From NCBI GenBank assembly GCA_963809035.1, contig CAWEHV010000002.1:1312113-1376112 (forward strand): DNA of 64,000 nt, given 5' to 3'. This stretch comes from an uncultured Thermoplasmata archaeon (GTDB lineage: Archaea > Thermoplasmatota > Thermoplasmata > Lutacidiplasmatales > UBA184). Of this stretch, positions 102 through 49,878 are shown in pieces. Positions within the stretch are counted from its first letter, which is position 1; each line of letters begins with the position of its first letter. The notes below the pieces were generated by a model that was not told the DNA's origin, did not search any database, and worked only from the letters and a program-made list of their open reading frames with translations. The translations under genes and the position numbers were made by a program.

Positions 102-3100
102 TTGGGGATATACGTCTGCGAACGATTGCGCTCGGCCAAAGGGGGTGGAATGCGCGCATCAATCACGATTGTTCTCGCATGCGTGGTATTGCTTTCGGGA
201 CTGGCTGTCGGCCAGTCCTTCGTAGATCCGGAACCAGCCCCTACGACCACGTTCGCAGCGAGCCTGGCTCCTCCCACCCTGGGGGCTGCCGTCTCTGAGT
301 CTTTCTCGGCAAGCACGTCCGGCACGACGTCGGCAATCCCCGTTTCCTCAGGGGACGCCGTCTACGTCTTCGTGTCCCAAAACGGTACCATCGGAACCCC
401 CTCGGTGAAGGCCTCCTCCACCCTACCATTCGTCCAGAGAGGTCAGGGCGCTCGCGGTACCTTCCTCCGCACCACTCTCTTCGAGGCCGACAACGTACCG
501 GCTTCACCCAGTCTGACGGTCACGGTCAGCTTCACCGAGGCGCAGACGTTCGCAGTCGCGGTGGTCGACCTCGTCGGAGGCGGGGCCTCCCCCAATGACA
601 CGGTCGGAGGATTCGCCACCGGCGGATCCGGACCCGGTGCCCAGCCCAAGGTGAATACGACCGTTGCCAACGACCTCGTCCTCGGGGTGATCGGCGACAC
701 CTACAACGGGCCCGTGACGGGATATGAGGGGTCCACCACGGTGACCAGCACTTCGGTCGGCTCGCCCGCGGTGATCACGCTCGGTGTGGTAAGTCAGACC
801 GATCCGACCACGGGCTGGTTCACCATCTGGGGCAACATGGGAACGAAGACCACCAGCTCGGCATCGTTCGCCATCGCGATCAAGACGCAAGGCATCGTGC
901 CGCCTCCGACTTTGTACTCGGTCAGCGTCGACCCGAGCGGCCTTCCCTCGGGTACGAGCTGGTCCCTCACCCTCGGAGGGACTCTTGGGTCCAATCTCGC
1001 TCCGGGAGCAATTATTTTCAGCGAGCCCAATGGGACGTATTTCTACACTGTGTGGACGGTCCCCGGTTATGAGGTCACTCAGAGCTCCGGCAGTGTCACG
1101 GTCGCCGGGGCCAACCCTTCAACCGTCGATATACAATTCGCGACGTTTCCGCCCAACTCGAAGTCCATCCAGCATGTGGTCGTGATCATGCTGGAGAACG
1201 AGAATTCATCTTCAGTGTGGAGCAAGACGTCGGGGGGATTCTACGAACAGTACCTCGCATCCCACTATGGTAACGCTACCGACTTTTACGCCGCGTGCCA
1301 CGACTCCGCCCCGAATTACATGGCGGTCACGGGTGGCAGCACGAACAATGAGTGTGTGGAAGCGAAACAAACGGGAATCTCTTCGGGCCGGAACATTGGC
1401 GACCTGATGCAGGCGGCCGGATTGAGCTGGGACGAGTACATGGAATCTCTGCCCCCCACTTCCACGATTCCCTGCAACACGTCCACCGGCATCACCAATT
1501 ACTACAACGGGGGGCACAACCCATTCATTGAGTACTCTGACGTAGTGAACCCCCTCTCCGTATGCGAAAACCACGTGTTCAGCAGCCAGGAGTTCAACGC
1601 CAGCCTCGAACACGGGAAGCTCGGTAACTATTCCCTCTACATCCCGAACGATTTCGACGATGGTCACACTACCGCCTATGGGGTCTTGGGGAACCTCTCG
1701 AATGGGGACGCGTGGCTCAAGGGCTTCCTTGGGCCCATCCTGAACGGCACCGAGAACGCTAGCGGCACCGGAAATTATGGGCTCCAGGCGACCCGGAACG
1801 AAGTCGCCCACACGGCGTTCTTTATCCTTTACGATGAGGGGAAGTCGGCCAGCTACACGGGGTACATTTCCGGTCCTCCCCTCCCGGCTTGTGAGGGAAT
1901 CAGCTCCCCACCGGACGCGAGCGTCTGTGGAGGGCAGACCTACATGAGCGTGGTCAGCCCGTACTCCCTCGGGACGACCTGGACCCAGGACGCGACCCAG
2001 TACAGCGTGGAGTCCACGATCGAGTGGCTCTTCGGCTTGGGGAGCGACGGCGGGAATGACAGCACACCCTACTTCCCCCCCCTGACCGGCTTGTTCGCGT
2101 TCCAGTCGAATGGGTTCGGGTCCAACGTTACGTTCGAAGAATCGGGTCTACCGACGGGGACCAACTGGTCGGTGACCCTGGGGGGCGTCTCGCAAAGCGC
2201 GAAGGCGTCGGAGGGCTCTCACACCTCGTCCATCGTCTTCGTCGAACCGAACGGGACCTACCAGTATTCGGTCGGGCCGGCGGGGGGGTTCATGGCGAGC
2301 CCTTCGAGCGGTCAGGTGACGGTGAACGGAGCGAGCAAGTCCGTCTTCGAGACTTATGCTCTGCCCTATTCGGTCACCTTTACGGAAACAGGGTTGGCTT
2401 CCGGCACGACCTGGAACGTGACGATGGGCTCCACCGTGGGGCACGCGGATTCGCCCACCAGTATCGTCTTCCCCGTATCGAACGGCACCTATCCCTTCAC
2501 CGTGGGTCCGATCCTCGGCTACTCCGTGGCTCCGGGCTCCGGGAACGCGGTGGTGAGCGGGTCCTCGATCACGTACCCGATCACCTTCACCGCGATCACC
2601 TATCCGGCGACGTTCACCGAGAGTGGCCTACCGTCGGGCCGGACGTTTCAGGTGACGGTCAACGGCAACACGATGAGTCTCACCACGGACGGGTCGACCG
2701 ATACGCTGACTTTCACCGGCCTTGCGAACGGGAGCTATCCCTACACGATCACGGGCAACTCGGGATGGTACCAGTCAACTCTTGCCTACACCGGGACAGT
2801 CGTGGTGATAGGCGGAGCGCTCACCGAGCCCACCCTGGTCTACACGCAGGTGACGTATTCCGTGGTCTTCTCCGAGAGCGGCTTGCCGTCGGGCCAGACG
2901 TTCCAAGTCACGGTTAACGGCAGCGCGCAGGAACTTACGACGGATGGGGCGACGGACCCACTGACATTCACCGGTCTTGTGAATGGTACCTACCCCTATT
3001 CCGTCACGGGGATCGCGGGATGGTACCAATCCTCCATGCCTTCCACCGGAACCGTACCGGTGGCGGGCGGTTCGGTCACCGAGCCTACCCTCGCCTACAG

Positions 3101-5123
3101 CCCGCTGGAGACCTTTTCGGCCGTGTTCTCGGAGAGTGGCTTGCCGTCAGGTCAGACGTTCCAGGTCACGGTCAACGGCGTGCCGATGAGCCTTACGACG
3201 GACGGAGGGACAGATACGCTGACGTTCCCCGGCCTGACGAACGGGACCTACTCATACACGGTCACCAGCGACCCCGGATGGTACCAGTCCACTCTAACCT
3301 ACACTGGATCCGTTGTGGTGGATGGCACGGCCGTCATCGAACCGACCCTGGTCTACACCCTAGTGACGTACTCGGTGGCGTTCTCGGAGGCCGGGCTTCC
3401 CTCCGGACTCACGTGGAACGTTTTGGTCAACGGCGTGAGCGAGTATCTCACGACCGACGGCGGCACCGATAGCCTCACCTGGACGGGCTTAGCGAACGGG
3501 ACCTTCTCGTACACTATCACCGGCAACTCGGGGTGGTCCCAGCTCGTTCTACCCTACAGTGGAACGCTCACGATCAGTGGCGCACCCGTCACCGAACCAA
3601 CCCTCGTGTATGCGCAGGTGACGTATTCCGTAGTGTTCTCCGAGAGCGGCCTGCCGTCCGGCCTGACGTTCCAGGTGACGCTCAACAGTGCGGCAGAGAG
3701 CGTGACGACGAACGGAGGGACGGATTCGCTGACTTTCACGGGCCTTGCGAACGGCACGTATAGCTACACGATCGCGGGGATCTCGGGGTGGTACCAGCCG
3801 ACCCTCCCCTACACCGGGACGGTCGTGGTGAGTGGGGGGGCGGTCGCCGAGCCGACCCTTGTTTACGCGCAAGTGACCTATTCGGTGGTCTTCTCGGAAA
3901 GTGGCCTACCGTCCGGACAGGCGTACCAGGTGATGGTCAACGGTGTGGCGAAGAGCCTCACGACCGACGGCGGCACGGACAGTCTCACGTGGGCGGGCCT
4001 GGCGAACGGGACCTATCCCTATACGATCACCGGCGACGCGGGCTGGCACCAGAGCACCCTCGCGTACGGTGGGAACGTCGTGGTGAACGGCCTAACGGTG
4101 ACGGAGCCGACGCTCGTCTACAACCAGGTAACGTACTCGGTGATGTTCTCGGAGCGCGGACTTCCCTCTGGTCTCATGTGGACCGTGACGGTCAACAGTA
4201 TGCCGGAATCCCTTACGACCGACGGCGGCACGGACAGTCTCACGTGGACGGACCTGGCCAATGGGAGCTACGTCTACACGGTCTCTGGCAACGCGGGCTG
4301 GCACCAGAGCACCCTCCCGTACAGTGGGAACGTCGTGGTGAACGGCTTGTCGGTGACGGAGCCGACACTCGCCTACAACCAGGTGACGTACTCGGTGAAG
4401 TTCTCGGAGAGCGGACTTCCATCCGGTCTGACGTGGGCCGTGACGGTCAACAGTTTGCCGAAATCCCTTACGACCGACGGCGGCACGGACAGTCTCACAT
4501 GGACGGGCCTGGCCAACGGGACTTATCCCTACACGATCACCGGCAACGCGGGCTGGCACCAAACAAAGCTGAGCTACAGTGGAACACAAACGATCAACGG
4601 CGGGTCGGTGACCAAGTCGACGCTCGTCTACTCCCAGGTGACGTACTCGGTGAAGTTCTCCGAGAGCGGACTCAAGTCCGGACTCACGTGGAAGGTGAAG
4701 GTGAACGGCGTGACGAAGTCCCTGACGACCAGCAGCGGCACCAACACCCTCACCTGGACCGGCCTCGCGAACGGGACCTACAGCTACTCGATCACGGACA
4801 ACTCCGGCTGGCACCAAACCACGCTGGCCTACAGCGGCTCGCTGACCGTGAACGGCGCCACGGTAACCGAGCCGAAGCTCGTCTACTCCCAGGTGACGTA
4901 CTCGGTGACCTTCACCGAGAGCGGACTCCCGTCGGGAACGACGTGGTCGGTCAAGCTGAACGGGGTGACCAAGTCCTCGACCGGCCCTTCGATCGTCTTC
5001 ACGGAACCGAACGGGACGTTCAGCTATACGGTAGGGCACGTGGCAGGCTACACCGCTAGCCCATCGTCCGGGTCGGTGACGGTAAGCGGAGCTTCGGCCG
5101 CGGTCAGCGTGCAGTACAGCTGA
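102..5123 (+). CDS. Giant secreted protein: signal peptide + phosphoesterase (phospholipase C / acid phosphatase AcpA family) domain + ~24 tandem ~90-aa 'FxESGLPSGxTW' repeats; likely true start at M17 (nt 150)
   Basis: N-terminus 'MRASITIVLACVVLLSGLAVG' is a signal peptide. 'IQHVVVIMLENENSS', 'NDFDDGHT' and 'YDEGKSASY' match the conserved HVVxxMxENRSFD / NDxHP / DEGGG blocks of the phosphoesterase family. These are followed by ~24 tandem repeats 'VTYSVxFSESGLPSGxTWxVTVNG..TDGGTDSLTWTGLANGTY.YTI.G..GW.QSTL.Y.G.V.V.G..VTEPTLVY'. Numerous N-x-S/T sequons. No C-terminal TM. Confidence 0.75.
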   Translation: MGIYVCERLRSAKGGGMRASITIVLACVVLLSGLAVGQSFVDPEPAPTTTFAASLAPPTLGAAVSESFSASTSGTTSAIPVSSGDAVYVFVSQNGTIGTPSVKASSTLPFVQRGQGARGTFLRTTLFEADNVPASPSLTVTVSFTEAQTFAVAVVDLVGGGASPNDTVGGFATGGSGPGAQPKVNTTVANDLVLGVIGDTYNGPVTGYEGSTTVTSTSVGSPAVITLGVVSQTDPTTGWFTIWGNMGTKTTSSASFAIAIKTQGIVPPPTLYSVSVDPSGLPSGTSWSLTLGGTLGSNLAPGAIIFSEPNGTYFYTVWTVPGYEVTQSSGSVTVAGANPSTVDIQFATFPPNSKSIQHVVVIMLENENSSSVWSKTSGGFYEQYLASHYGNATDFYAACHDSAPNYMAVTGGSTNNECVEAKQTGISSGRNIGDLMQAAGLSWDEYMESLPPTSTIPCNTSTGITNYYNGGHNPFIEYSDVVNPLSVCENHVFSSQEFNASLEHGKLGNYSLYIPNDFDDGHTTAYGVLGNLSNGDAWLKGFLGPILNGTENASGTGNYGLQATRNEVAHTAFFILYDEGKSASYTGYISGPPLPACEGISSPPDASVCGGQTYMSVVSPYSLGTTWTQDATQYSVESTIEWLFGLGSDGGNDSTPYFPPLTGLFAFQSNGFGSNVTFEESGLPTGTNWSVTLGGVSQSAKASEGSHTSSIVFVEPNGTYQYSVGPAGGFMASPSSGQVTVNGASKSVFETYALPYSVTFTETGLASGTTWNVTMGSTVGHADSPTSIVFPVSNGTYPFTVGPILGYSVAPGSGNAVVSGSSITYPITFTAITYPATFTESGLPSGRTFQVTVNGNTMSLTTDGSTDTLTFTGLANGSYPYTITGNSGWYQSTLAYTGTVVVIGGALTEPTLVYTQVTYSVVFSESGLPSGQTFQVTVNGSAQELTTDGATDPLTFTGLVNGTYPYSVTGIAGWYQSSMPSTGTVPVAGGSVTEPTLAYSPLETFSAVFSESGLPSGQTFQVTVNGVPMSLTTDGGTDTLTFPGLTNGTYSYTVTSDPGWYQSTLTYTGSVVVDGTAVIEPTLVYTLVTYSVAFSEAGLPSGLTWNVLVNGVSEYLTTDGGTDSLTWTGLANGTFSYTITGNSGWSQLVLPYSGTLTISGAPVTEPTLVYAQVTYSVVFSESGLPSGLTFQVTLNSAAESVTTNGGTDSLTFTGLANGTYSYTIAGISGWYQPTLPYTGTVVVSGGAVAEPTLVYAQVTYSVVFSESGLPSGQAYQVMVNGVAKSLTTDGGTDSLTWAGLANGTYPYTITGDAGWHQSTLAYGGNVVVNGLTVTEPTLVYNQVTYSVMFSERGLPSGLMWTVTVNSMPESLTTDGGTDSLTWTDLANGSYVYTVSGNAGWHQSTLPYSGNVVVNGLSVTEPTLAYNQVTYSVKFSESGLPSGLTWAVTVNSLPKSLTTDGGTDSLTWTGLANGTYPYTITGNAGWHQTKLSYSGTQTINGGSVTKSTLVYSQVTYSVKFSESGLKSGLTWKVKVNGVTKSLTTSSGTNTLTWTGLANGTYSYSITDNSGWHQTTLAYSGSLTVNGATVTEPKLVYSQVTYSVTFTESGLPSGTTWSVKLNGVTKSSTGPSIVFTEPNGTFSYTVGHVAGYTASPSSGSVTVSGASAAVSVQYS

Positions 5124-5589: not shown

Positions 5590-5826
5590 ATGATTACGAC
5601 GATCCAAGTTACGCCGGCCACCCGCGAACGACTTGCCGCGTTGAAAAGTTCCCCTCGAGAGACCTACGATGAGCTCCTGAACAAACTACTGTCTCTGGTC
5701 CCACAGGGAGACGATGAAGGGACGTACACCGATGCGTTTCGCATGGGGCTGCTGAACGCTCGACTTGACATCCGATCGGGCCGCGTGACGGAGCACGAGC
5801 AGATCAAGAAACGGTTGGGCCTCTGA
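5590..5826 (+). CDS. Small antitoxin-like protein (archaeal VapB-like / DUF217-type fold)
   Basis: 78 aa, 'ITTIQVTPATRERLAALKSSPRETYDELLNKLLSL' resembles archaeal 'TIxVSxExxxRLxxLK...SYDDVIxxLL' antitoxins; immediately followed by a RelE-like coding remnant. Confidence 0.5.
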   Translation: MITTIQVTPATRERLAALKSSPRETYDELLNKLLSLVPQGDDEGTYTDAFRMGLLNARLDIRSGRVTEHEQIKKRLGL

Positions 5827-5832
5827 CGCGCA

Positions 5833-6090
5833 CATGGTCGATTAAGTGGTCGGACCTCACCGGGTCGGTACCGCGACCTGCACAGACTGGATCGGACGGC
5901 AGCCCGAGGGGTTGTAACCCGGCTTGAAGCTTCGGCTTTGGACCCAACCCACTATTTCACGAGATTAACGACTTCGGACGAATACAAGCTTCGTATTGGT
6001 GACTACCGCCTCCTGGCGGTGCTCTCTCTCTCAGAACAGACCATTCTGGTCGAACGAGTAGACCATCGGTCGCGAATTTATGACCGCTGA
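5833..6090 (+). pseudogene. RelE/ParE-family toxin remnant (no ATG, apparent frameshift) downstream of antitoxin
   Basis: Frame ending TGA at 6088-6090 encodes '...DEYKLRIGDYRLLAVLSLSEQTILVERVDHRSRIYDR'. This matches the conserved RelE C-terminus (YRLRVGDYRIIY...ILRVGHRKDVY). Another frame gives an N-terminal-like 'WSIKWSDL', with a stop at ~5925; there is no intact ORF with a start codon. Confidence 0.5.
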
Positions 6091-6306: not shown

Positions 6307-6642
6307 TTAGGGTCTTTCCACGGGCCACTTGGTCGCTCGCCGAGTGGACTCGGAAATGGGCGGACGTGCCGACTGGTCATAATTCAGTTTCATCGCAACC
6401 ATCGTGAGCGACAGCGCCAACGTCGCCGCGTTCGCGAGGATCACCGGTACCGATTGGATCAGGAGGCCGTAAATCAGCCACGTGAATGTACCAACGGAGA
6501 AGGCGAGGAATGCCACTAGCGAAATCTCCTTGGCGCTCTTGAGTCGCCATACTCGCATCACTTGGGGCACAAACGCGCCGGTCGTGCAGAACGCTGCAAT
6601 CAACCCGATTAGAGTAATCCACCAGTCCGCGAGGGCAATCAC
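6307..6642 (-). CDS. SemiSWEET / PQ-loop (MtN3-like) small membrane transporter
   Basis: 111 aa, 3 predicted TM helices, conserved 'FVPQV' PQ-motif after first helix. Confidence 0.55.
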   Translation of the reverse strand: MIALADWWITLIGLIAAFCTTGAFVPQVMRVWRLKSAKEISLVAFLAFSVGTFTWLIYGLLIQSVPVILANAATLALSLTMVAMKLNYDQSARPPISESTRRATKWPVERP

Positions 6643-7836: not shown

Positions 7837-8016
7837 CGAATAATCACCCTTCCCGGGCCCCCGACCTCAGCGAGAGCCCGGCTGTCCGCAAGGCAACTGC
7901 CTGAGGAATCTCTGTCGCCCGAGGGTGGTTGTAAATCACGTTGCACCCACTCTTCCGCCTGACGGCGGTGACCGCCCGGGGGCAACGGTAGCCAAGCTTC
8001 TTGATTCAGGAGGAGT

Positions 8017-8907: not shown

Positions 8908-9014
8908 ATCCCTCGACCGCGCAGTCGACCCCCCCATTCACGAGTGATCCGGCCGTCAGCTCCTGGAATATCTCACGAAAGCACCTAAGGTGCAAATCTG
9001 TGGGTGCATCTGAG

Positions 9015-9240
9015 GTTACACCCACCGCCCGGCTCCAAGTGAAACAGTTCGTTGATTGGCAATCGAATACGCTAACGCTAGCAGTTAGTGTGCCAATGGC
9101 CGTTCTGTGCAATGCAACTACTCGAGGAACCTCTGTCGCACAAGAATGGTTGCAACTCCGATTACACCCGCCCCCCGGCGCCAAGCAGAACACTTCGTTC
9201 AACAACGATCGAATACGCTGATGTTAGCAGTCGGTCCGTC
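9015..9240. repeat. Two copies of an ~85-nt direct repeat (9015-9100 and 9155-9240, ~75 % identity) in intergenic DNA at the high-GC/low-GC boundary
   Basis: 'ttacacccaccgcccggctccaagtgaaacagttcgttgattggcaatcgaatacgctaacgctagcagtta...' versus 'ttacacccgccccccggcgccaagcagaacacttcgttcaacaacgatcgaatacgctgatgttagcagtc...'. Confidence 0.6.
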
Positions 9241-9403
9241 GATGGGTGTGTAATGCATTACGCATTCCACAGGAGTCTCGATGGTTGCATCCAGGCCGGG
9301 GCCCTGGCGCAAGATGAGAAGCAACCAACCCGGCTACAAACCGACCAGGGGCCGTCATCCTGAGAAGAACTTAATTCATTGAAACTGGGTCCTCATAGAG
9401 TGA

Positions 9404-22521: not shown

Positions 22522-22663
22522 TACCGTTTACCACGATTGTAGCCCTATTTCCCCCTTCCGAGGGACTCCACGGGCTCGGGGAGGTATAACCGGGCCCGTC
22601 CTCTGTGAAATCCAAGGAGGGAGGGTCTCGGATCGTGAATTGACGGTGTGTGTAATTGCACAT

Positions 22664-27158: not shown

Positions 27159-30100
27159 GTGATGTCGCCTATCGATTCGATGGCGCGCCGCAACTCCAGA
27201 GTTCGTAGATTTTGGATCGTGGTCCCCCTTGTCGCCATCTTGAGCCTTTCCGGCCTTGTTGGAGCGATTCCCTCATCCTCCGCTGGTGGTTCTGGGAACG
27301 GATTTCATGGGGCAGTCGGGCACGCCACAGGCGAGGGCCGATTAGGGGCGGTCACGCCGAATCTGGGTCGCGTGACCATGGGTTCGAGCTGGCGAGCCAA
27401 CGCGGCTCGAAGTCCCTCGGCGTCATTCGCGCCATTTGTCCGGTCAACGTTGATTCTCCTGAACAGCACTCTCGCCGCCGGGAACGATTTGGCCGGGAAT
27501 GGAGAGGGTCCGTATGGGGCCGTACTGATACCAGGGACTGACTTACTAGTGATTCCGGACGAGGGAAGCGGCTACCTTTCGGTTTTGAACGTCTCGACGA
27601 ACCAGTTAATCACCGTCGGTCCGGTGGGAACGGCTCCTTCAGCCATTGCATTCGACCCGACGCGCGACCTCCTAATGGTCACTGACGAGGGAGCAGGCCA
27701 AGTCAGCATCGTGTCAGCCACGAATTACTCGGTCTTGGACCGGGTGGATGTCGGAAGCAGCCCCGATGCCATCGCCTACGACCCACTCAACGGCACCACC
27801 TACGTCGTGAACGGTAACTCAAACAACGTGACGGTCATCAACGACAGCTCCATGGCCGTGATCGCAACGATTTCGGTTGGGAATTACCCTGACGGCGTCG
27901 CAGTGGACAACCACACGGACCAGATTTTCGTCACCGATTACTACGATGATAACGTTTCGGTTATCAACGCCTCATCCAACACTGTCGTCAAGACCGTCGG
28001 GGTGGGTTCGGGTCCCAAGGGACTCGTATTTGACTATCTGTCGAACAAGGTCTACGTCGCCAACAGCGCGGGGGAAGATCTCAGTATCATCAAGGACAGC
28101 ACAGACTCCGTCACGCACACTCAAGAATACGGGGCCTACACCAGCCCCCAAACAATCGCGCTCGACCCGGCCAACGATACCCTCTACGTCACGGAAGGGT
28201 TCGCGGCCCTTTCGCCGGTGAACAATGTCACCTTGGTGAACGTCTCCACGGGTGCGGCCATACTGAATATATCGGTCGGACTCTACCCGTACGGGATCGC
28301 CTACGATCCCGCGGATCAGTCTGTATTCGTCGTCAACTCCGCTTCTGAGAACGTGAGCCGCGTCTCGACCATCTCGAACAACGTAACGGCCACCATTTCG
28401 GTCGGAACCCATCCCCACGCGATCTTCTATGACCCGAGTGCCGGTGAGATTTGGGTCTCGGACACAGACTCAAACAACCTCACCGCCATCAGTCTGACGA
28501 GTGGAAAACTCGTGGGGTACGTACCCGCGAACACGTTCCCGTCCGGCCTCGCCTTCGACCCCGCCCTGGGACAGCTACTAGTGACCGACGAGTCCTCGAA
28601 CGAGGTCACCCTGATAAACATCACGACCCACTCGGTCACCGACACGGTGCCGGTCTCGTCGCAGCCGATCGCGGCTAGCTTCGATTCGCTCAATGGCGAC
28701 TACTACATCTCCACATCCCTGGATGGCGGTGCCCTGGCCGTGCTTTCCTCGGCAAGTGACTCTGTCACCGGCAACGTCACGTTGTTGGGAGTTTTGACCC
28801 GTTCCTCGGTATTTGTCCCATCTCTGAATGAAACGTATGTCTCGGACCTAGGGTCCGCTACGATTTCGATTGTCTCCGACGTGACGAACACGCGCGTGAA
28901 GAACGTGGTCGTCGGCACTTCGCCGCTCGGGGTCGCCCTCGACCCGGCCCGAGGAGAGGTGTTCGCTGCCGATTCGGGTTCAGACCAGGTTTCCGTGATC
29001 AACACCTCGACGCAGACCGTCGTGGCGACCGTGCCGGTCGGTTCACAACCTTCGAGCGTCGGGTATGACCCCGCGGCTGGCGAAGTGTTCGTCACGAATT
29101 CGGGTTCGAACAATGTCAGCGTGATCAATGACACGACCAACACAGTCATCGCGAATCTCGCCGTTGGCGCACTCCCGATTGGAGTTACCTACGACCCGAC
29201 TAACCAATTGATGCTCGTCACGAACGAGAATCAGGGTACGGTCTCCATGATCCAAACAGCGAATACGACCTTCGCTCTCACGTTCCAGGAGTCAGGGTTG
29301 CCCGCGAGCACCCTCTGGAATGTTTCCGTGGGTGGAACGTCCCACCAATCGACGAGCTCGTCCGTAGTCTTCTCTGAACCGAACGGGACAGTCGCGTATT
29401 CGATCGGACACGTGGCAGGATACCACCCCGCGCCCTCGTCCGGGTCGTTGGTCGTCAGCGGCCAGCCTTCCATCGTCAACGTGACGTTCGCCACGAACGC
29501 CGTCCAGTTGTACAACGTGACGTTCAGTGCCCAAGGGTTGCCTTCGGGCGCGACCTTCGGGGTCACGCTTAACGGTTCTGCGATGTCCTCGTTGGGCGGT
29601 CCGCTGGTCTTCGAAGAACCGAACGGGAGCTTCCCCTTCAGTGTAAGTTCGGTCACGGGCTATCGCGCGACGCCGACGAGTGGGGCGATCGTCGTCCACG
29701 GGACTCCTGCCGACCAAACGATTACATTCACCGAGAATGCTACTCCTACCTACACGGTCGACTTCGAGGAATCTGGTTTGGCCCCGGGAACCAGGTGGTC
29801 GGTCACCTTCAACGGTTCTCTCAACGCCTCCACCACCTCGGAGATCGGCTTCAAAGTCTCGAGTGGAACCTACACGTACAACGTCACACCCATCCCCACA
29901 TACTCTGCGAGTCCCTCCCACGGCTCCGTGCCAGTCACTGGCCCGACCGCGGTCGATATCGGCTACACGATCCCAGCATATGTCGCGACGTTCACGGAGT
30001 CCGGGCTTCCCAGTTCTACCAACTGGTCAGTGACCCTTGGTGGCGAGCCATACTGGACGACCTCCGCATCGATCTACCTGGACTTGGCCAACGGCAGTTA

Positions 30101-30371
30101 CCCATGGACGGTCTCGACCGTGAAAGGATTCACGGCCACTCCGGTAAGCGGGAAGCTCTCGGTTAGCGGAGCGAATGTCACCACGCCCATCAGCTTCGCT
30201 CAGAACACCACCACCAACGTGCCGCCCTCCAACAACACCTCGAACGGAGGAGTATTGGGCCTCTCCGACCTCGATTGGGTTGTCATCGGGGTATTCGGAG
30301 CATTGGCGGTAGTGGTACTCGCGGTCGTTCTGACGAGGTACCGGCGACCCGGCGCTCCTCCCGAGACCTGA
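27159..30371 (+). CDS. Surface protein: signal peptide, ~14 YVTN beta-propeller repeats, 7 'FxESGLPxxTxW' repeat modules, C-terminal TM anchor
   Basis: 'RRFWIVVPLVAILSLSGLVGA' signal; repeated 'VxVGxxPxxIAYDPxxGxxYVxN'; repeats 'FALTFQESGLPASTLWNVSV', 'YNVTFSAQGLPSGATFGVTL', etc.; C-terminus 'LSDLDWVVIGVFGALAVVVLAVVLTRYRRPG'. Confidence 0.8.
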   Translation: MMSPIDSMARRNSRVRRFWIVVPLVAILSLSGLVGAIPSSSAGGSGNGFHGAVGHATGEGRLGAVTPNLGRVTMGSSWRANAARSPSASFAPFVRSTLILLNSTLAAGNDLAGNGEGPYGAVLIPGTDLLVIPDEGSGYLSVLNVSTNQLITVGPVGTAPSAIAFDPTRDLLMVTDEGAGQVSIVSATNYSVLDRVDVGSSPDAIAYDPLNGTTYVVNGNSNNVTVINDSSMAVIATISVGNYPDGVAVDNHTDQIFVTDYYDDNVSVINASSNTVVKTVGVGSGPKGLVFDYLSNKVYVANSAGEDLSIIKDSTDSVTHTQEYGAYTSPQTIALDPANDTLYVTEGFAALSPVNNVTLVNVSTGAAILNISVGLYPYGIAYDPADQSVFVVNSASENVSRVSTISNNVTATISVGTHPHAIFYDPSAGEIWVSDTDSNNLTAISLTSGKLVGYVPANTFPSGLAFDPALGQLLVTDESSNEVTLINITTHSVTDTVPVSSQPIAASFDSLNGDYYISTSLDGGALAVLSSASDSVTGNVTLLGVLTRSSVFVPSLNETYVSDLGSATISIVSDVTNTRVKNVVVGTSPLGVALDPARGEVFAADSGSDQVSVINTSTQTVVATVPVGSQPSSVGYDPAAGEVFVTNSGSNNVSVINDTTNTVIANLAVGALPIGVTYDPTNQLMLVTNENQGTVSMIQTANTTFALTFQESGLPASTLWNVSVGGTSHQSTSSSVVFSEPNGTVAYSIGHVAGYHPAPSSGSLVVSGQPSIVNVTFATNAVQLYNVTFSAQGLPSGATFGVTLNGSAMSSLGGPLVFEEPNGSFPFSVSSVTGYRATPTSGAIVVHGTPADQTITFTENATPTYTVDFEESGLAPGTRWSVTFNGSLNASTTSEIGFKVSSGTYTYNVTPIPTYSASPSHGSVPVTGPTAVDIGYTIPAYVATFTESGLPSSTNWSVTLGGEPYWTTSASIYLDLANGSYPWTVSTVKGFTATPVSGKLSVSGANVTTPISFAQNTTTNVPPSNNTSNGGVLGLSDLDWVVIGVFGALAVVVLAVVLTRYRRPGAPPET

Positions 30372-40883: not shown

Positions 40884-43800
40884 ATGGCCGACCGGCGAGC
40901 GGTGACCGTGGCTGTGACCTTGGTGATCGGAGTTCTCGGTACTCTCGTCGTTGGGCCTCCTGGCAGGGCTGGGAACCTCCCCTTCCGCAGCCCACGGGGC
41001 GGCGTTGCATGTGGCTTCCTCGCGCAGCACTGCTCCAGCCTCGGCTGGAGGCGCTCGCTCCCCTGGCGCCCTTATGGCATCCGAGCTGGGCTTGAACGGT
41101 GTCGGCGGCAACGCTCTCCCCAATCCGGTGGCGGTCGAGGCGCTCGCCCAGGCCAAAGCATCGGGGGTACCCACGACCGATGTCTTCGTCCCCCGCGCTG
41201 GAGCCACTCCGGCCGAGGTCGCCCAGTCCATGGCCAAAGGCCACGTTACGCCGCTTTACGGTGGGGACACTCCGGCCCCGATCGGTCTCGCTGACTACGG
41301 TCTCTCCGCCAACCCGAACGGCAACGGCAGTATCGTGCCCTCGATCCTCAACACGCCCAGCGTGAAGGCCACTTTCGCCCCCAATGCGACCGGCATCCAG
41401 CCCCTCTACCCGTTCGACAGCACACCGGACGGCTACGGAGTGCAGCTGAACGCCGTCACGACCAACATCAGCCTCCTTGGCAACTCGAGCTACTCGTTCT
41501 GGACGCAGAATGTCGTGGAGTACTTGGCCCACGCGCACGAGCTGATCCTCGTCACGAACGTATGGAACTTCTCGAGCCCCTTGTCCTCGCTCTCAGCGAA
41601 CGCCATCTACCAGCACGGCGCCTACGGAACGCAGGTCGGCACCGAACTGTACTACGCCGAATATCCGGTCCTGACCTCGATCACCTATCCGTTCAGCGTG
41701 GACCTTTGGATGAACAACTCCGTCATCTCCGGGCGCAATGCCGTGAATTTCACGGTGGCGTTGAATGAGAGCGGCGTCACGACCGTCTTCCCATACGACT
41801 ACGTCATCTTCAACTCGACCAACCTGACCTCCGGACCGGCGCCTCCGTCGAACTACACGGCCAACGGCTACCAGTACAATCCCCTCGGACTCACGGATGA
41901 CTTCGAGGTCGTTCTGGGAGGCCCGGGCGGCGGGTCCCAGGCCAACCTGTATGCGGCGGATGCGAACTTCACCCTCCAGTATTGGAACATCTCCTCCTCC
42001 TCGTACAAGACGGTCCCTAGTGCTTTCTCCTACGGCGGCGAGACCGGGGAGACCGTCACCGGTGCGTACGTCGGGTGGCACAACGGGACGAACGGAGCCC
42101 CCTATGGGGCCGTCCGAACCGGTCCGTCGATGCTGGTCGGGCTCTGGAACGCGACCGGGGCCCCGGGCTTGGGTCAGGTCAGTCTGACGCTCTCACCGGA
42201 GAATGCGTTCGTCTTCTTCGGCCCCAACTGGACGAGCAACTTCACCCAGGGGGACCTACCCTACTGGGCGCCTCAAGAGACGACCAATACCTTCTGGCTC
42301 GCCCCTGGGACGTACGACCTCACGGTCGCTCTGAGCGACTATTTCCCGGTGGTGCTGTCGGTGACCGTCACGCTCGGCTCGAACCCGATCAGTGCGACCC
42401 TGGCGCTCGACACCTTTGAGGGGATCTACACTCCGATCTGGGTCTGGAATAACGACCAGTACGCCGCCGTCTCGAGCGGCGGGAGCGGGACTCCGAGCGA
42501 CCCGTACCATATCTACAACGCTCAGACGAACTTCATGCCGAGCGTCTTCGGAACTTGGAACGATTTCGCGTTCCCGGTCTTCACCGGGGTGTTCCTCTTC
42601 GGCACGACCGCCTCGGTCGTACTTTCCAATATGTCGGCCCTGGTGACCAGCATGCCCTCCGGGCTGGCCGCCCCGACCGACTCCCTTGGCTACGTCTTCT
42701 ACAACGCCTCGAACGTGGCCCTGGTCAACTCGACCAACATCAGCGGCTGGTACTCGAGCGGGCTCTACGACCCGGTGGATGCCCCGGCCTTCGCCGGAAA
42801 CTACTACGGGACGTTCAGCGTCGTCCTGTGGGACTCGTCGGGGAACCTGATCGCCGACAACACGTTCGAAACGCAATCCGGCGGCCTCACTCTGTCCGGC
42901 GGATCGAGCAACACCGTCTTTGGCAACTCGTTCACGATGGTACCCTTCCCGACGTTCCCGCACCCGACCGTCCTGTCGGGCCTGAACCAGAGCCTCGGCC
43001 TGCAGGAGACGGAGAGCGGGGACCTGGTCTACGGCAATGCGTTCGACACGACCGTCACCGCCGTGACCGAACCCTACGATCTCTACAACGGGAATCCCCT
43101 CGCTCCGCTCGAGACATGGAACATCACCCCCACGCCGGCGGCGACGATCCACTACGCGACGAACTTCCCCGACTTCCCCCTCACCGGGACGATCGTTGGC
43201 AACTCGACCCAGGGCGGCAACTACTGGTGGGACTACGGCGGGGCCTCCAACCCCCTCGGCACCCTTCCCTACACCGAGGTCCTGGTCGGGATCTCCCAGA
43301 TCTTCACCGGCGGCGACTACTGGCCCCTCGTCGCACCCACGCCCGCGAGCTACCTGGCCGCGTTCACAGAGAGCGGGCTGCCGGCCAGCACACCCTGGGA
43401 GATCTACCTCGCCGGCACCCACCCCGGGTCGAACCGGACGATCCAGTTCGACCTCACCAACGGCAGCTACCCCTGGTCCGTCGGCGCGGTGAGCGGCTAC
43501 GTAGCCCTGCCTCCCAACGGGACCCTGGTGGTCGCGGGCGAGCCGACGAACATCACGATCGCCTTCACCCCGGCGGTGCCCCCGACGACCTACCGGGTGA
43601 CGTTCAGCGAGACCGGCCTACCGAACGGAACGGCCTGGGCGGTCATCCTGGGCAGCCAGACGAACTCGTCGACCACCACCGTTGTCACCTTCGAGGATCC
43701 GAACGGGACCTTCCCCTTCTCGTTCGGGAACGTGTCCGGGTATCGGCCGACCCCGGTGAACGGACAGGTCACGGTCCATGGGGCCGCCCAGGGCCAGAGC

Positions 43801-44754
43801 GTGGCCTTCGCTGCGAGTTCGCGGACCTACACGCTCACCTTCTCCGAGACGGGCCTGCCGACCGGGACGCTGTGGTCCGTGGCCGTCGGACTCTCGAACC
43901 TGAACTCCACCGGCCCCGAGATCAATTTCAGCGTGACTCCAGGGACCCATGGCTATGAGATCGGCACGGTCGCTGGATACCAGTCCTCGCCCGCGAGCGG
44001 GGCGACGACGGTCCTGGCCGCGAACCAGACGATCTTGGTGGCGTTCACCAAACTAGCGAGCGGGGAGTACACGGTGACCTTCACCGAGTCGGGCCTTTCC
44101 ACGGGCACCAGTTGGTCGGTGACGATTGGTTCGACCACCCAACCCTCGACGGGGACCACGGTCGTCTTCACCGAGCTCAATGGGACGTACGCCTACTCGG
44201 TCACCACGGTCCCCGGCTATACCCTCGCTAAGTCCTCCGGGTCGATCACGGTCTCCGGAGCGAACACGGGGACCGCCGTGGCCTTCTCCGCCATCCCCCC
44301 TGGGAAGTACGCGCTCACGTTCACGGAGAGCGGTCTACCCGGCGGGACGAACTGGTCCGTGACGATCGGCACCTCCACCGTCTTTTCGAACGGGGGGAAC
44401 GTGGTCGCCTTCCAAGAGGCGAACGGTACGGCTTCTTACCAGGTCGCGTCGGTCGACGGATATACGGCCAGCCCGAGCGCCGGCTCGGTGGACCTCGCGG
44501 GGGCGGCCAAGGATGTGGCCGTCACGTTCTCCAGCAGTGGATCCTCGGGCTCCTCCAGCAGCGGGCTGTCCACTCTGGACTGGACGATCATCGCGGTGGT
44601 GGTCTTGCTGATCGTGATCGCGGCGGTGTTCGCGCTCTCCCGTCGCGGGCGCGGTGGTCCGAGCGCTACCATTCCGCCGGAGGGCTCCCCCACGGAACCG
44701 GTCGAGCCCGCGGGGCCCGGCGGGCCTCCGGCGGGGGGCGGGGATACGCCGTAG
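40884..44754 (+). CDS. Thermopsin (peptidase A5)-like giant surface protein + beta-helix region + 7 'FxESGLPxGTxW' repeats + C-terminal TM anchor; signal peptide separated from the body by a 1-nt frameshift near 40938
   Basis: Frame 0 'MADRRAVTVAVTLVIGVL' and frame 1 'SSLGLLAGLGTSP' together match the paralog N-terminus 'MADRRVMLLTVTLVTLVMILSSLGLLSVGA'. 'FWTQNVVEYL...LVTNVWNFSS', 'FEVVLGGPGGGSQANLYAADANFTLQYW' and 'FSYGGETGETVTGAY' align with thermopsin blocks (YWLQDVGQF..IDNVWNLTG, AELVWGGGGNG.., FGADTAEAAYN). C-terminus 'SSSSGLSTLDWTIIAVVVLLIVIAAVFALSRRGRGG'. Confidence 0.7.
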
Positions 44755-44892: not shown

Positions 44893-47800
44893 GTGTGGCC
44901 GGCCGAAATGGCCGACCGACGAGTGATGCTCCTGACGGTGACCCTAGTGACCTTGGTGATGATCCTCTCCTCCCTTGGACTTCTGTCCGTGGGCGCCCGG
45001 GCCCCGGCCGGCCCTTCGAGGCCCTCGGGGGTCTCCCCGCTGGTCTCCGCGCCCGCCCCGCCCTCCCCCGCCCGGCCCGCGTCAACCCCGGTGGGCTTGG
45101 CCCAGGCCGGTACCACCCTCCCCACAACCTCGACCGCAGTGACTCCCACCGAGGGCGTTAATCCCGCGGTCGCCAAGGCAAAGCTCCTCATCGCCGAAAA
45201 GAAGCTGAACCCGTCGAGCGTCTTCTTCCCCGCGGCGGCACCGGCCACCCCCCCGTCCTCGACGTCCTCCCTTACCACTGCCTACACCGGCAACCCCGCG
45301 CCGATGGGTCTCTCGGACATCGGGCTCGGCTCGTCCGGTCCCTACATTTACAATAGCTCGAGCTTCGAGGCCTCGATCCACCTCAATTCGTTCACGGACT
45401 ACAATCCCGGCTACTCCGGGTGGGTCGCTCCGCCGAACTACATGACCTGGCAGCTGAACACGGTCACGGTCAACGTCTCTTTTCCGGGATCGACCACCGG
45501 GGTCTTCTGGATGCAGAACGTCGTCCACTTCAATGGGACCTCGCTGCAGTTCGAGAACAACATCTGGAACATGTCCAGCTCGAACGCAGCGCTCAACCCC
45601 GGTACGCTCCTGAATTACAACGGTACCCTGGTCGCGGGCTCGTTCTACTACATCTACGGTCCGACCTTCCAGGTGACGTATCCCTTCACGCTGGACCTGT
45701 ACAACAACATCACCTCGCGGGGCGGGCACCCGGGGCTTTACTTCAACTACACTCTCACCAACACGACCACGGGATCCCACACCGGCTCGTTCGACTACGT
45801 GACCTTCAACGGGACGACCTCGCTGAGCGCTCCCCCGCAGTTCTCCGTGAACGGAAAGCACTACAACCCGTTCGGCGCCACTCCCTACCTGCTCTGGGAC
45901 GCGGAGCTCATCTTCGGCGGGAACGGGGGCGGTGCCAACGCGGTCATCACGAACCTCAACGGAACCTCCACCCTCCGGTTCTGGGACAAGACGGCCGCGA
46001 AGTACGAGAACGTCCGGTCCGCGTACGATTACGGCGTGGACACGGGCGAGACCGCCGACGGGGTCGCCGCGGCGTACCAGGGGACGACCGAACTCCTGAG
46101 CCAGGGGCCCTCGATGCTTTACGGGCTCTGGAACACCAGCGTCTCGTCCTGGGGGCCCGCGGCCAACCCGGGTTGGATCAACGTCGACCTGACCGGACAG
46201 CCGAGCTACGGGTTCGTCTTCGGCACGAACCAATCGTCCGCGAACTACCTGAGGGGCACCGGGAACTGGTCCTACTCCCCCTCGGGGGCGACCGGCACGA
46301 CGGTGACCCACCTGCCGCCCCCGGCCTCGGGGAACCCGTACGTCTTCCGGGCGTACGCGAACGGGTTCGGTCAGTCCAACCTCACGGTCAGCAACAACGC
46401 GTCCGGTGTAGCGGCGTTCTCGTTGGTGGCGAACTCTAAGTCGTTCGACACCCCCGTGTACCTCAGCACCACGGCCCAAGTGGCGGCGTTCGGTGCGGCG
46501 GGCCTGTCGGGCGTGACCTACTCTGCCCTGCACAACGGGCTCTGGATCAATAAGACGCAAGCTTCGTACGAGATCCCGTTCGACCTCCTGAACGATTTCC
46601 GGTACCCGGAATTCATGCTGTTCGCGGCCGACAACCTGTCCACGAACGTCTCGCTCAATCACTTCGTCCAGGACCCACTGACGTTCATCTACTGGAAGTA
46701 TGACGTCATCCGGGCCACGAGCTACTACGCGGACTTGACCCAGGGATACTTCTTCAACTACGGAACCGGCGTGTTCTCCGTGACGAACACGACGGTCGCG
46801 GGGAGCCCGTACCTCACCTACGACGCGGGCTTCACGGCGCTCTCCGCGGTCGAGTTCTGGCAAACCACGAACAGCCGGGCGGGCTGGATCATCACCAACG
46901 GGGACTCCTTCGGGGTCGACGTGATGAACAGCACCCGTGCGACCCTCTGGAACATCCAAGGAGAGACCGGCGCGAACGCGATCGCGGTCTTCTACTCGGA
47001 GTTCGTGACCGCCACGGACATCAGCTCCAACGGAACCGACCTCGGCGGCGGCGTGGCCGGCGTAACTCCCTTCCCGACGTGGGCGGCCTATCTCGAGCTC
47101 GACAGGTTCGTCTCCCTCAACGGGGTGACGGCCTCGAACGGCTCGGTCTGGGTATTCTCCGTAGATGATGGGGCCTTGGACCTCGTCAACTTCAGCGCCA
47201 CGAACAACGTCGTGCTGAACGGCGCAGGTCCCGAGTATGGGTTCATGGCTCTCTTCGAGGGCGACCTGGACGATACGCTTACCAACTGGGTGGCCACGAA
47301 CTCTTCGAGCTACTTCCCCTTTATCGCGACGTTCGTCGAGGTCGTAGGTCTCAGTGTGTACAATTTCAGTGTCTCGGGAGTGGCGCCGACGGGCACCCTG
47401 GATCCCGGCTCCCCGATCTACGGGATCGTGTTGGATATCCCATTCGGGTTCTACATCTCCGCGGAAGTCGACCTGGTCGACGTCACGGCCACGTTCGGCG
47501 CGGTCGCCGTCCTGGGCGAGTACGTCATCGGCCTGACCGTAGACGACATCACCGCGACCGCCGGAGGTTCCGCCGTGGTCTTGGAGGAGGCGGAAAATTT
47601 CGTCGCGTCCAACGTCAGCGCGTCGTCGGCGGGAATCGGCATATTCGTCGCCTTGGCGACCAACGTGACCGCATGGAACGTCACCTCCAGCGCCGGATCG
47701 GTCGGCGTTTTCGTCGAGGGGGCCGTCAATGTCGATGTTTGGAACGTCAACGCGACCTCTCCCAGCCTTGGCCCCGCATATTTCAGCAACGTTGCCCTCA

Positions 47801-49878
47801 ACGGAATGATCCCGAACGCCGGGGTCGCCCTGTTCGAGAACGAGAATGAGACGGTCTCCAACGTCTCGACGGTCGACTACGCCTACGGCGTCTGGGACAA
47901 CTCCTCCGCGGACGGGGTCGCCTTCTCGAACATCACGTCGTGGAACGGCGGCACCGCGGTCGCGTTCAACGGTACCAACGGGGCCACCGTATCCTCCGTG
48001 TTCGCCTACGGCAACCAGTGGGGCGCGACGTTCCTCAACACGACCGCCACGACCGTGACCGCGAGCACCTTCGAGGGCTCGGCGAGCTACGGAGTGACCG
48101 TGACGGGGGGAAGTGGGTTCGTCGCCTACGGGAACAACTTCGTGGCGAACAACGGAGCCTCCACGAACGGCACGTTCAACGCCGCGACCGTCCAAGCCTC
48201 GGTGTTCTTGCCCTCGGCGATGTTCACGTACCTCGGGATCGGCAACTACTGGTCCGACTGGGACGGCTCGGGATCCTACACGATCAACGGCGCGGTGTCC
48301 GACACGGCACCGCTCGCTGCCTTCATCTCGAGCTGGCTCGAGATCAACGAGACCGGCCTCCCGGCGGGCTTCGCCTGGGGATTCACCCTGGACACGGTCG
48401 ACTACACCACCTCCGCCCCCCTCGTGTTCATCCCGAGCTGGAGCCTCGCGGACGCGACGCTCGGGTTCGTCGTGAACCCGCCCACCGGCTACACGCCCAC
48501 GCCCGCCTCCGGGACGATCCCGTACGCCGGCGCGAACACGACGGTGACCATCTCGTTCGTGAAGGCGCACTACAACGTAGTGTTCCAAGAGAGCGGCCTT
48601 CCCTCGGGCACGACCTGGAGCGTCACGTTCAACGGGACGACCCTGCAGGACACGACGGTCGGAAGCACCGGGTCGATCACGTTCTCGGTGTACGACGGCA
48701 GCTATCCCTACACCGTCGGGTCGGTGACCAACTACAACTCCGCTCCGTCGAGCGGGACGAAGGCCGTGTCGGGAGCCAACGTGAACGTGCCGATCGTCTT
48801 CACCCACGTGCCTGTGGCCTACTCGGTGACCTTCACCGAGTCGGGTCTGGTGCCGGGAACGTCCTGGTCGGTCACGCTCGGGTCGAGCACGAAGTCGTCC
48901 ATGAACACGACGATCGTGTTCTCCGAGCTCAACGCGAGCTACATCTACACCATCCCGAACGCCGACGGCCTCATACCGGCCCCTAGCGCGGGAACGATCG
49001 CGGTCAACGGGACGAACACGGGGCTGTCGGTCGTCTTCACCGCCGCCCCGGTGGGGACCTACGCGGTGGTGTTCAACGAGGCCGGCCTGGGACCCGGCAC
49101 CAACTGGTCGGTGACGATCGGTTCCTCGACGTTGTACTCTCGCGGGGGGACGAGCGTGACCTTTGAGCTCGTCAACGGCTCGTACACCTACCTGGTCAAC
49201 GCGGTCCCCGGCTACAAGATCGAGCAGGTGAGCGGTAGTGTGCAGGTGACGGGTCAGCCCCAATCATTCACCGTCACCTTCGTCGCTACCCCGTTCACCT
49301 ACACGATCACCTTCGCGGAGACCGGACTTCCGAGCGGCACCGACTGGTCGGTGACGATCGGGACCACGACGCACTACTCGGACGGGAACGCGACCGTCAC
49401 CTTCCAGGAAGGGAACGGGACGTACAGCTACCAGGTCGGGTCGGTCACGGGCTACTCGGTCTCGCCGTCGAGCGGCCCCCTCACCCTGACGGGCGCCGGG
49501 ACGAGCGTGAATCTCGCGTTCACGAGCACGGGCTCCAGTTCCTCGTCCTCCGGGCTATCGACCCTCGACTGGGCGATCATCGGGATCGTCATCGCGATCC
49601 TCGTGATCGTCCTGGTCGTGGCCCTGGTGATGCGCGGACGCGGCGGGTCGGGGTCCGGAGCGACCACTGACACCACCTCGACGACGACCTCCGACGAGAC
49701 GGTGAGTCCAGAACCGTGGGCGGAGGAAAGCCCCCCGGAGAGTCCCCCTAGTTCCCTGAACGGGAACCGGGACCAACCCTTTCCTCTCCTTTCTTCCCGA
49801 ATGCATCCGACCGCTGGACCGCTGCCTCAGCGTGCCTCGAGACCTTGGACCCGGGCGGAAAGGGTTGGAGACCGGTAG
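44893..49878 (+). CDS. Thermopsin (peptidase A5)-like giant surface protein (1661 aa) with extended parallel beta-helix region, 7 'FxESGLPxGTxW' repeats and C-terminal TM anchor
   Basis: 'VFWMQNVVHFNGTSLQFENNIWNMSS', 'LWDAELIFGGNGGGANAV', 'YDYGVDTGETADGVAAAYQG'. Middle region has N/G/S/T-rich beta-helix-like repeats. C-terminus 'SSSSSGLSTLDWAIIGIVIAILVIVLVVALVMRGRGGSG'. Confidence 0.75.
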   Translation: MWPAEMADRRVMLLTVTLVTLVMILSSLGLLSVGARAPAGPSRPSGVSPLVSAPAPPSPARPASTPVGLAQAGTTLPTTSTAVTPTEGVNPAVAKAKLLIAEKKLNPSSVFFPAAAPATPPSSTSSLTTAYTGNPAPMGLSDIGLGSSGPYIYNSSSFEASIHLNSFTDYNPGYSGWVAPPNYMTWQLNTVTVNVSFPGSTTGVFWMQNVVHFNGTSLQFENNIWNMSSSNAALNPGTLLNYNGTLVAGSFYYIYGPTFQVTYPFTLDLYNNITSRGGHPGLYFNYTLTNTTTGSHTGSFDYVTFNGTTSLSAPPQFSVNGKHYNPFGATPYLLWDAELIFGGNGGGANAVITNLNGTSTLRFWDKTAAKYENVRSAYDYGVDTGETADGVAAAYQGTTELLSQGPSMLYGLWNTSVSSWGPAANPGWINVDLTGQPSYGFVFGTNQSSANYLRGTGNWSYSPSGATGTTVTHLPPPASGNPYVFRAYANGFGQSNLTVSNNASGVAAFSLVANSKSFDTPVYLSTTAQVAAFGAAGLSGVTYSALHNGLWINKTQASYEIPFDLLNDFRYPEFMLFAADNLSTNVSLNHFVQDPLTFIYWKYDVIRATSYYADLTQGYFFNYGTGVFSVTNTTVAGSPYLTYDAGFTALSAVEFWQTTNSRAGWIITNGDSFGVDVMNSTRATLWNIQGETGANAIAVFYSEFVTATDISSNGTDLGGGVAGVTPFPTWAAYLELDRFVSLNGVTASNGSVWVFSVDDGALDLVNFSATNNVVLNGAGPEYGFMALFEGDLDDTLTNWVATNSSSYFPFIATFVEVVGLSVYNFSVSGVAPTGTLDPGSPIYGIVLDIPFGFYISAEVDLVDVTATFGAVAVLGEYVIGLTVDDITATAGGSAVVLEEAENFVASNVSASSAGIGIFVALATNVTAWNVTSSAGSVGVFVEGAVNVDVWNVNATSPSLGPAYFSNVALNGMIPNAGVALFENENETVSNVSTVDYAYGVWDNSSADGVAFSNITSWNGGTAVAFNGTNGATVSSVFAYGNQWGATFLNTTATTVTASTFEGSASYGVTVTGGSGFVAYGNNFVANNGASTNGTFNAATVQASVFLPSAMFTYLGIGNYWSDWDGSGSYTINGAVSDTAPLAAFISSWLEINETGLPAGFAWGFTLDTVDYTTSAPLVFIPSWSLADATLGFVVNPPTGYTPTPASGTIPYAGANTTVTISFVKAHYNVVFQESGLPSGTTWSVTFNGTTLQDTTVGSTGSITFSVYDGSYPYTVGSVTNYNSAPSSGTKAVSGANVNVPIVFTHVPVAYSVTFTESGLVPGTSWSVTLGSSTKSSMNTTIVFSELNASYIYTIPNADGLIPAPSAGTIAVNGTNTGLSVVFTAAPVGTYAVVFNEAGLGPGTNWSVTIGSSTLYSRGGTSVTFELVNGSYTYLVNAVPGYKIEQVSGSVQVTGQPQSFTVTFVATPFTYTITFAETGLPSGTDWSVTIGTTTHYSDGNATVTFQEGNGTYSYQVGSVTGYSVSPSSGPLTLTGAGTSVNLAFTSTGSSSSSSGLSTLDWAIIGIVIAILVIVLVVALVMRGRGGSGSGATTDTTSTTTSDETVSPEPWAEESPPESPPSSLNGNRDQPFPLLSSRMHPTAGPLPQRASRPWTRAERVGDR

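Follow-up and report, generated by a model that had tools for sequence, protein, structure and literature searches.

A tandem beta-sandwich repeat of predicted prealbumin/transthyretin-like fold, absent from Pfam and NCBIfam, in surface proteins of Thermoplasmata

Tandem beta-sandwich domains form a well-known class of cell-surface modules. PEGA (PF08308) and CarboxypepD_reg-like (PF13620/PF13715) domains, of ~70 amino acids (aa), occur in archaeal and bacterial surface or surface-layer (S-layer) proteins, and CnaB/SpaA-like domains and SdrD B-repeats occur in Gram-positive pilins and MSCRAMM adhesins. These families (CnaB, SpaA, SdrD_B, CarboxypepD_reg and PEGA) represent the prealbumin/transthyretin-like superfamily, which we take to be Pfam clan CL0287. 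PKD, fibronectin type III (fn3) and immunoglobulin (Ig)-like tandem domains of archaeal surface proteins differ in fold topology and sequence family from the repeat described here and fill the same architectural niche. A further comparison is offered by SlaB (PDB 8qox_B), a protein with a long coiled coil that serves as the membrane-anchored stalk in the S-layer of Sulfolobus acidocaldarius. The present analysis concerns a repeat encoded six genes wide in a 64,000-nucleotide stretch (hereafter, the window) of an uncultured, acid-loving Thermoplasmata archaeon (assembly GCA_963809035.1, contig CAWEHV010000002.1). The repeat adds a new member, large and unannotated, to this class and does not represent a new mechanism or kind of system.

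A hidden Markov model (HMM) was seeded with four copies of the repeat and iterated to convergence on all six-frame open reading frames (ORFs) of the window of at least 80 aa. It detects 31 copies with per-domain E-values of 1e-16 to 1e-30, finds nothing at E<=10 in reversed or residue-shuffled versions of the same ORFs and locates no copy in any ORF outside the six genes. Given these E-values and the empty controls, a repeated protein module is present, far beyond chance. An earlier note, made from the sequence alone, had recognized the shared module but miscounted it. The note placed the module in five proteins, with 24 tandem copies in gene 1, seven in gene 2, seven in each thermopsin gene (genes 3 and 4) and three in each minus-strand YVTN gene (genes 5 and 6). 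The HMM instead assigns 13 (a tandem run of twelve, plus one ahead of the phosphoesterase domain), 4, 5, 5, 2 and 2 copies to these six genes. Likewise, the unit is not ~90 aa long but measures 73–79 aa, with a mode of 74.

A long variant of 82 aa accounts for nine consecutive copies of gene 1 (2598-4886), which are preceded by two short copies and followed by one. Its period is 85 aa or 255 nucleotides (TRF, 3338-4927), and its copies share 55–73% pairwise identity. The consensus quoted in the earlier note (..SLTTDGGTDSLTWTGLANGTY..GW.QSTL..) fits these nine copies and not the common unit. In the long variant, a T-T-D-G-G-T-D loop is inserted and a G-W-[YH]-Q-S-T-L segment is present; the common variant has neither. 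Among 1,928 aligned repeats of the wider family, a second length peak at 81–82 aa indicates that the long variant recurs elsewhere.

The repeat could not be assigned to a named family, as the earlier note had stated. Pfam-A (2025 copy) and NCBIfam (2026) do not recognize it in the whole proteins, in six single copies scanned at E<=10 or in the 31 copies taken one by one. Even at E<=10, none of the 31 copies gives a PEGA match, and neither CarboxypepD_reg (PF13620) nor CarbopepD_reg_2 (PF13715) matches the window proteins; none of these models reaches its gathering threshold. In homologues, PEGA matches sit on neighboring, distinct units, and CarboxypepD_reg-type matches on or beside the repeats remain below threshold (29–32 bits against cut-offs of 32.2–32.3). 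Several other candidates were rejected. Copper-bind (E 6e-10 in gene 1) arises from summed weak matches with no single passing stretch, and a single copy scores only E 0.058. DUF1214, FlgD_tudor and Cas9_b_hairpin are similarly summed over the repeats without any stretch that passes. DUF5979 (PF19407), the NCBI name of one homologue, reaches 27–35 bits over whole proteins in the same manner and is absent from the window proteins. Flg_new_2, the divergent InlB B-repeat (PF18998), is a separate interspersed domain whose match falls in the gap between repeat copies in homologues P0070 and P0115. K319L-like_PKD, He_PIG and Big_3_5 appear only as sub-threshold noise in the Pfam scans of the copies. 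A protein from a Micrarchaeota S-layer preprint is unrelated to the repeat, and a literature search for the combination of thermopsin with YVTN or for the ESGLP motif returned nothing relevant.

A relation to the prealbumin/transthyretin-like superfamily is nevertheless detectable at the profile level, weakly but consistently. When PDB sequences are searched with a profile of only the 31 window copies, no credible match appears, whereas a broader profile of 91 diverse members (A5) matches PDB chain 9vo5_B, a 'SpaA-like prealbumin fold domain', at E 1.3e-4 over positions 8–72. Units that Pfam recognizes as PEGA or CarboxypepD_reg occupy the tandem slot right after the repeat array in YVTN homologues. 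When aligned by hhalign with eight such PEGA-like units, profile A5 gives a probability of 82% (E 1e-5, 47 columns), with the common core ..V.lnG...G...i.lp.GtY.v.v..GY....v.V.

What is the fold of the repeat? The AlphaFold2 model of a single repeat, built with the 31 copies as the alignment, is a seven-strand all-beta domain with a pLDDT of 98.1. A Foldseek search of the PDB with this model returns weak matches only (best E 0.03, TM-scores 0.6–0.67), and these are to transthyretin-like domains of carboxypeptidase D, rhamnogalacturonan lyase, SdrD and DUF3823. The three-repeat model (gene 3 copies 2–4, from an alignment of 33 triples; pLDDT 94.8, pTM 0.69) consists of three beta-sandwiches joined by 4–5-residue linkers, and its best matches are multi-domain pilins, TIE and SdrD B1-B2, with E-values down to 3e-10. 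The modeled unit is thus a seven-stranded sandwich in the range of ~70–90 aa that superposes on members of the prealbumin/transthyretin-like superfamily. Given the Foldseek matches to transthyretin-like domains, pilins and SdrD, the predicted fold is a prealbumin/transthyretin-like sandwich and not an Ig or fibronectin type III domain. The Ig/fibronectin-type identity suggested in the earlier note fails on this point, as the repeat matches no Ig or fn3 family and the best structural neighbors of the models are not Ig or fn3 domains.

Sequence conservation distinguishes the repeat from its relatives. Across the 1,928 repeats, the signature comprises Y2 (85%), F6 (93%), E8 (90%), G10 and L11 (96% each), P12 (74%), G14 (82%), W17 (98%), N39 (90%), G40 (96%), T/S41 (92%), Y42 (82%), G59 (93%) and G65 (92%). 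The conserved positions are core hydrophobics and turn residues, and exposed positions vary, as is typical of modules that serve a structural role and do not bind ligands. The repeat resembles PEGA and CarboxypepD_reg in size and core motif but has its own N-terminal strand, the signature Y-x-V-x-F-x-E-x-G-L-P-x-G-T-x-W and N-G-T/S in place of the usual P-G-T at the beta4-beta5 hairpin. This N-G-S/T is present in 29 of the 31 window copies and in 88% of the family. In PEGA-like units, the same hairpin usually reads P-G-T/S-Y or similar, and because seven of eight units lack the Asn, it looks like a family-specific acquisition. N-x-S/T sequons number 2.1 per window copy. Charged residues (D+E+K+R) make up 6.7% of the repeats, compared with 23–25% of three cytoplasmic enzymes encoded in the window; cysteine is absent, and S+T+G amounts to 41%. 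In comparison with CnaB/SpaA-like domains and SdrD B-repeats, the repeat lacks the isopeptide Lys and any LPXTG/sortase context, being anchored in an archaeon by a C-terminal transmembrane (TM) helix, and no Ca-binding motif is apparent in its common short variant. Compared with the SdrD-type Ca2+ loop, the short variant has almost no acidic residues, and the acidic T-T-D-G-G-T-D loop is confined to the long variant, where it might bind a cation. In our reading, the repeat is a divergent sister to the PEGA/CarboxypepD_reg/CnaB-like domains and carries a signature of its own.

Five of the six proteins share one layout, in which an N-terminal signal or TM segment is followed by the head, the repeats, a short linker rich in Ser or in Pro, one TM helix and an Arg-rich cytoplasmic tail (Table 1). 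The heads are as varied as the earlier note had described, and Pfam and NCBIfam identify them as Phosphoesterase (PF04185), Thermopsin (PF05317) in two genes, one with a NosD/beta-helix region, and YVTN/YNCE propellers in three. The array between the anchor and such varied heads also supports the stalk-like and promiscuous character in the note's description of a mobile display module.

Table 1. Repeat-bearing genes of the window and other annotated features
Feature	Positions	Strand	Evidence or remark
Gene 1 ORF	102-5123	+	real start probably ATG at 150
Gene 1 isolated repeat copy 1	912..1139	+	HMM domain E 1.5e-23
Gene 1 head, Phosphoesterase family PF04185	1278..2039	+	Pfam E 8.5e-16, aa 393-646
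Gene 1 twelve tandem copies	2121..5117	+	HMM E 1e-22 to 1e-30 each
Gene 2 ORF	27159-30371	+	
Gene 2 head, YVTN/YNCE/NHL beta-propeller	27531..29309	+	TIGR02276 E 8.6e-71, PF21783
Gene 2 four tandem repeat copies	29268..30197	+	HMM E 1e-23 to 3e-27
Gene 2 C-terminal TM helix, then basic tail TRYRRPGAPPET	30270..30332	+	translation
Gene 3 ORF	40951-44754	+	
Gene 3 head, thermopsin (peptidase A5), then weak beta-helix region	41263..42063	+	PF05317 E 7e-51
Gene 3 five tandem repeat copies	43348..44529	+	HMM E 1e-22 to 3e-27
Gene 3 TM helix, then SRRGRGG.. tail	44575..44637	+	
Gene 4 ORF	44893-49878	+	
Gene 4 head, thermopsin domain	45271..46065	+	PF05317 E 1.2e-52
Gene 4 NosD/right-handed beta-helix region	47812-48168	+	PF05048/PF13229
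Gene 4 five tandem repeat copies, first one divergent	48334..49521	+	HMM E 6e-16 to 9e-26
Gene 4 TM helix, then RGRGG.. tail	49564..49632	+	
Gene 5 ORF	54808-57597	-	
Gene 5 YVTN propeller	55480-57216	-	TIGR02276 E 3.8e-72
Gene 5 two repeat copies, between propeller and TM helix	55018..55476	-	HMM E 3e-18, 9e-24
Gene 5 TM helix	54913-54975	-	
Gene 6 ORF	57703-60459	-	
Gene 6 YVTN propeller	58342-60048	-	TIGR02276 E 1.4e-71
Gene 6 two repeat copies, between propeller and TM helix	57865..58329	-	HMM E 3e-19, 7e-25
Gene 6 TM helix	57751-57813	-	
Methyltransferase gene	11055-11705		
GT4 gene	17135-17668		
GT4 ORF pair, apparently two halves of one split GT4	18052-18771 and 18704-19336		
GT4 gene	20467-21540		
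GT2 gene	21877-22521		
Kelch propeller, then three PKD domains, repeat absent	60645-63281	-	Pfam

The repeat is widespread beyond the window. Among 1.84 billion cluster representatives searched with HMMER, at least 7,834 (clustered at 50% identity) match at E<=1e-3 and 3,515 at E<=1e-30, with a maximum of 44 copies in one protein. Where sources give names, these are nearly all 'hypothetical protein', or else the entries come from Thermoplasmata archaeon metagenome-assembled genomes (MAGs). A few members derive from DPANN bins labeled Parvarchaeota or Nanopusillus acidilobi, an assignment that rests on MAG binning. In a one-genome-per-species scan with a five-repeat segment as the query, 14 loci were found, in Thermoplasmata/Thermoplasmatota MAGs (acid-mine sites, peat, Iron Mountain I-plasma) and one bin labeled only 'bacterium'. 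The repeats are always C-terminal in these 14 loci, with a TM helix behind most of the arrays. The heads paired with the repeat include thermopsin, pro-kumamolisin (an S53 acid protease; I-plasma), phosphoesterase, GH5 cellulase, YVTN/NHL, PQQ and Kelch propellers, and Flg_new_2; roughly one in three of the top 150 representatives is headless. Of 119 homologues of a YVTN gene of the window, 98 carry the repeat, mostly in 2–7 copies, and the others use PKD, fn3 or PEGA instead.

We propose, with a probability of roughly 0.7, that the repeat serves as an acid-tolerant, glycosylated spacer through which acid hydrolases and propeller binders outside the cell are tethered at a defined distance from the membrane. 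The unit is a predicted ~74-residue, seven-stranded prealbumin/transthyretin-like beta-sandwich, related to PEGA, CarboxypepD_reg and CnaB/SpaA-like domains and expanded in Thermoplasmata, and its copies are chained head-to-tail via 3–7-residue linkers. Given that the array is placed between an N-terminal catalytic or binding head and a C-terminal membrane anchor, it would act as a semi-rigid extracellular spacer that holds acid proteases, the phosphoesterase and beta-propellers off the membrane, and a change in copy number would change the reach of the head. The low charge, the lack of cysteine, the abundant Ser/Thr and the approximately two sequons per copy, one of them at the conserved hairpin, suit an acidic exterior. 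The analysis shows the repeat, its fold class, its place within the proteins, its broad distribution and its diverse partners; the spacer function, the glycosylation and the rigidity are what we infer. Comparable structures would be SlaB and the B-repeats of Gram-positive adhesins. The window repeat proteins, unlike SlaB, have no coiled coil, and the repeat profiles give no sequence-profile match to SlaB at E<=10.

Several observations weigh against a spacer function. Gene 1 stops one codon past its last copy without a TM anchor, no TM-encoding ORF was found downstream, and one of its copies lies N-terminal to the enzyme domain, which means that some copies are not membrane-proximal. In many homologues, repeats (up to 44 copies) and a TM helix occur with no head, and a pure spacer leaves these proteins unexplained. 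The pTM of 0.69 is insufficient to establish a rigid rod. Moreover, the sequence ties to named families are weak, with the PEGA, CarboxypepD_reg and SpaA HMMs below threshold on all window copies.

The headless members lend some weight to the main rival, in which the arrays themselves form a dense, heavily N-glycosylated brush as the glycocalyx or surface layer that shields the membrane of the otherwise wall-less Thermoplasmata from acid, with the heads as secondary decoration. Consistent with this alternative, provided that those genes carry the repeat, COG3391-type propeller proteins have been proposed as S-layer genes in acid-mine drainage plasmas (PMC3750248). However, every repeat gene of the window has a large head, lattice-forming contacts cannot be inferred, and Cuniculiplasma has putative S-layer (COG3391) genes, which may or may not carry the repeat, yet shows no S-layer by electron microscopy (PMC5155288). 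We consider a brush or layer unlikely as the primary role, although it overlaps with a stalk rather than excluding it. A bolder extension appears more doubtful still: the family could be the principal building block of the debated 'wall-less' Thermoplasmata envelope, with repeat-only and propeller-headed members and an N-glycan per beta4-beta5 hairpin forming an acid-proof glycoprotein brush or layer, and the DPANN copies could reflect an exchange of surface modules between host and symbiont.

It is improbable that the repeat is instead a binding module, for carbohydrate or homophilic adhesion, that recognizes mineral, biofilm polymers or partner cells such as DPANN symbionts. Its conserved positions lie in the core and turns without any apparent conserved surface patch, aromatic platform or charged site, a copy number of 2 to 44 is typical of spacers, and the DPANN assignments depend on binning. 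Finally, the sequence effectively refutes a CnaB-type identity in which, as in the pilins of Gram-positive bacteria, an intramolecular isopeptide bond between Lys and Asn/Asp would lock the domain. The best structural neighbors are isopeptide-bearing pilin domains and Glu8 and Asn39 are near-invariant, but no column is rich in the bond-forming Lys (at most 6.7% in any column and 0.9% overall in the 1,928 repeats).

The repeat also has practical consequences. Nearly all sources label its members 'hypothetical', and this large domain family, invisible to annotation, merits a Pfam entry. With a curated model, thousands of surface proteins of Thermoplasmata would be annotated correctly, and those secreted acid proteases, phosphoesterases and propellers that are membrane-tethered would be marked. 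The conserved sequon is a concrete target for archaeal glycoproteomics, and a compact, charge-poor, cysteine-free scaffold that presumably works at very low pH may be of interest to protein engineers.

Individual genes show further peculiarities. In gene 1, which shares a 90% cluster with a protein named 'alkaline phosphatase family protein [Thermoplasmata archaeon]', the first ~250 residues after the signal peptide (150-910) have no Pfam or NCBIfam match, and the isolated repeat copy stands between this region and the phosphoesterase domain. Read from the ATG at 150, its product is 100% identical to a protein (P0299) encoded on an NCBI/ENA contig of 2.31 Mb. Gene 3 seems to be frameshifted inside its signal peptide (40884-40960). 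The ATG at 40884 encodes MADRRAVTVAVTLVIG.., which resembles MADRRVMLLTVTLV.. of the thermopsin paralogue, gene 4, and the thermopsin frame, open only from 40927, reads on as ..VLSSLGLLAGLG, like the ILSSLGLLSVGA of the paralogue. A 1-nucleotide indel near 40925-40935, whether an assembly error, a pseudogene mutation or a recoding site, would explain this arrangement. The ORF of gene 4 runs 81 residues beyond its TM helix (49633-49878); this tail is of low complexity, rich in Thr, Ser and Pro, and far exceeds in length those of the other five genes. TRF detects short DNA tandem repeats at 31212-31276 (33 nucleotides x 2) and 49380-49435 (27 nucleotides x 2.1), and the latter falls within the final copy of the gene 4 array. 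The strand antisense to the repeat genes holds very long ORFs, such as the 1,393-aa ORF opposite gene 4 (45082-49263, minus strand), which most likely reflect the high GC content and repetitive codon usage and are not genes.

The repeat genes sit among glycosyltransferase, methyltransferase and sugar-nucleotide epimerase genes, and the window, taken together, forms an island of genes for surface proteins. The DNA is GC-rich (53–68%), with a lower GC content at ~8000-24000 (53–57% versus 61–68% elsewhere), where a glycosylation cluster and several ORFs without any family are located. A provirus at 8–24 kb was considered for this low-GC stretch and rejected in favor of a glycosylation gene cluster because PHROG matches are limited to glycosyltransferases. 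As the Kelch-PKD gene beside gene 6 indicates, this genome also builds a similar architecture with another stalk module. Two more NHL/YNCE propeller proteins without the repeat and an ORF whose N-terminal domain is of the archaeal type IV pilin family lie at 22954-24177 (minus strand), 31109-32680 (plus) and 32741-33616 (plus). The pilin domain marks the window as archaeal. Downstream of gene 1, an ORF at 5590-5826 (plus) resembles by eye a ribbon-helix-helix-type antitoxin, and the adjoining ORF at 5938-6090 (plus; ..YKLRIGDYRLLAVL..VERVDHRSRIY) is a candidate RelE/ParE-type toxin on the same visual basis. A candidate small PQ-loop/SemiSWEET-type membrane protein, also judged by eye, is encoded at 6307-6642 (minus).
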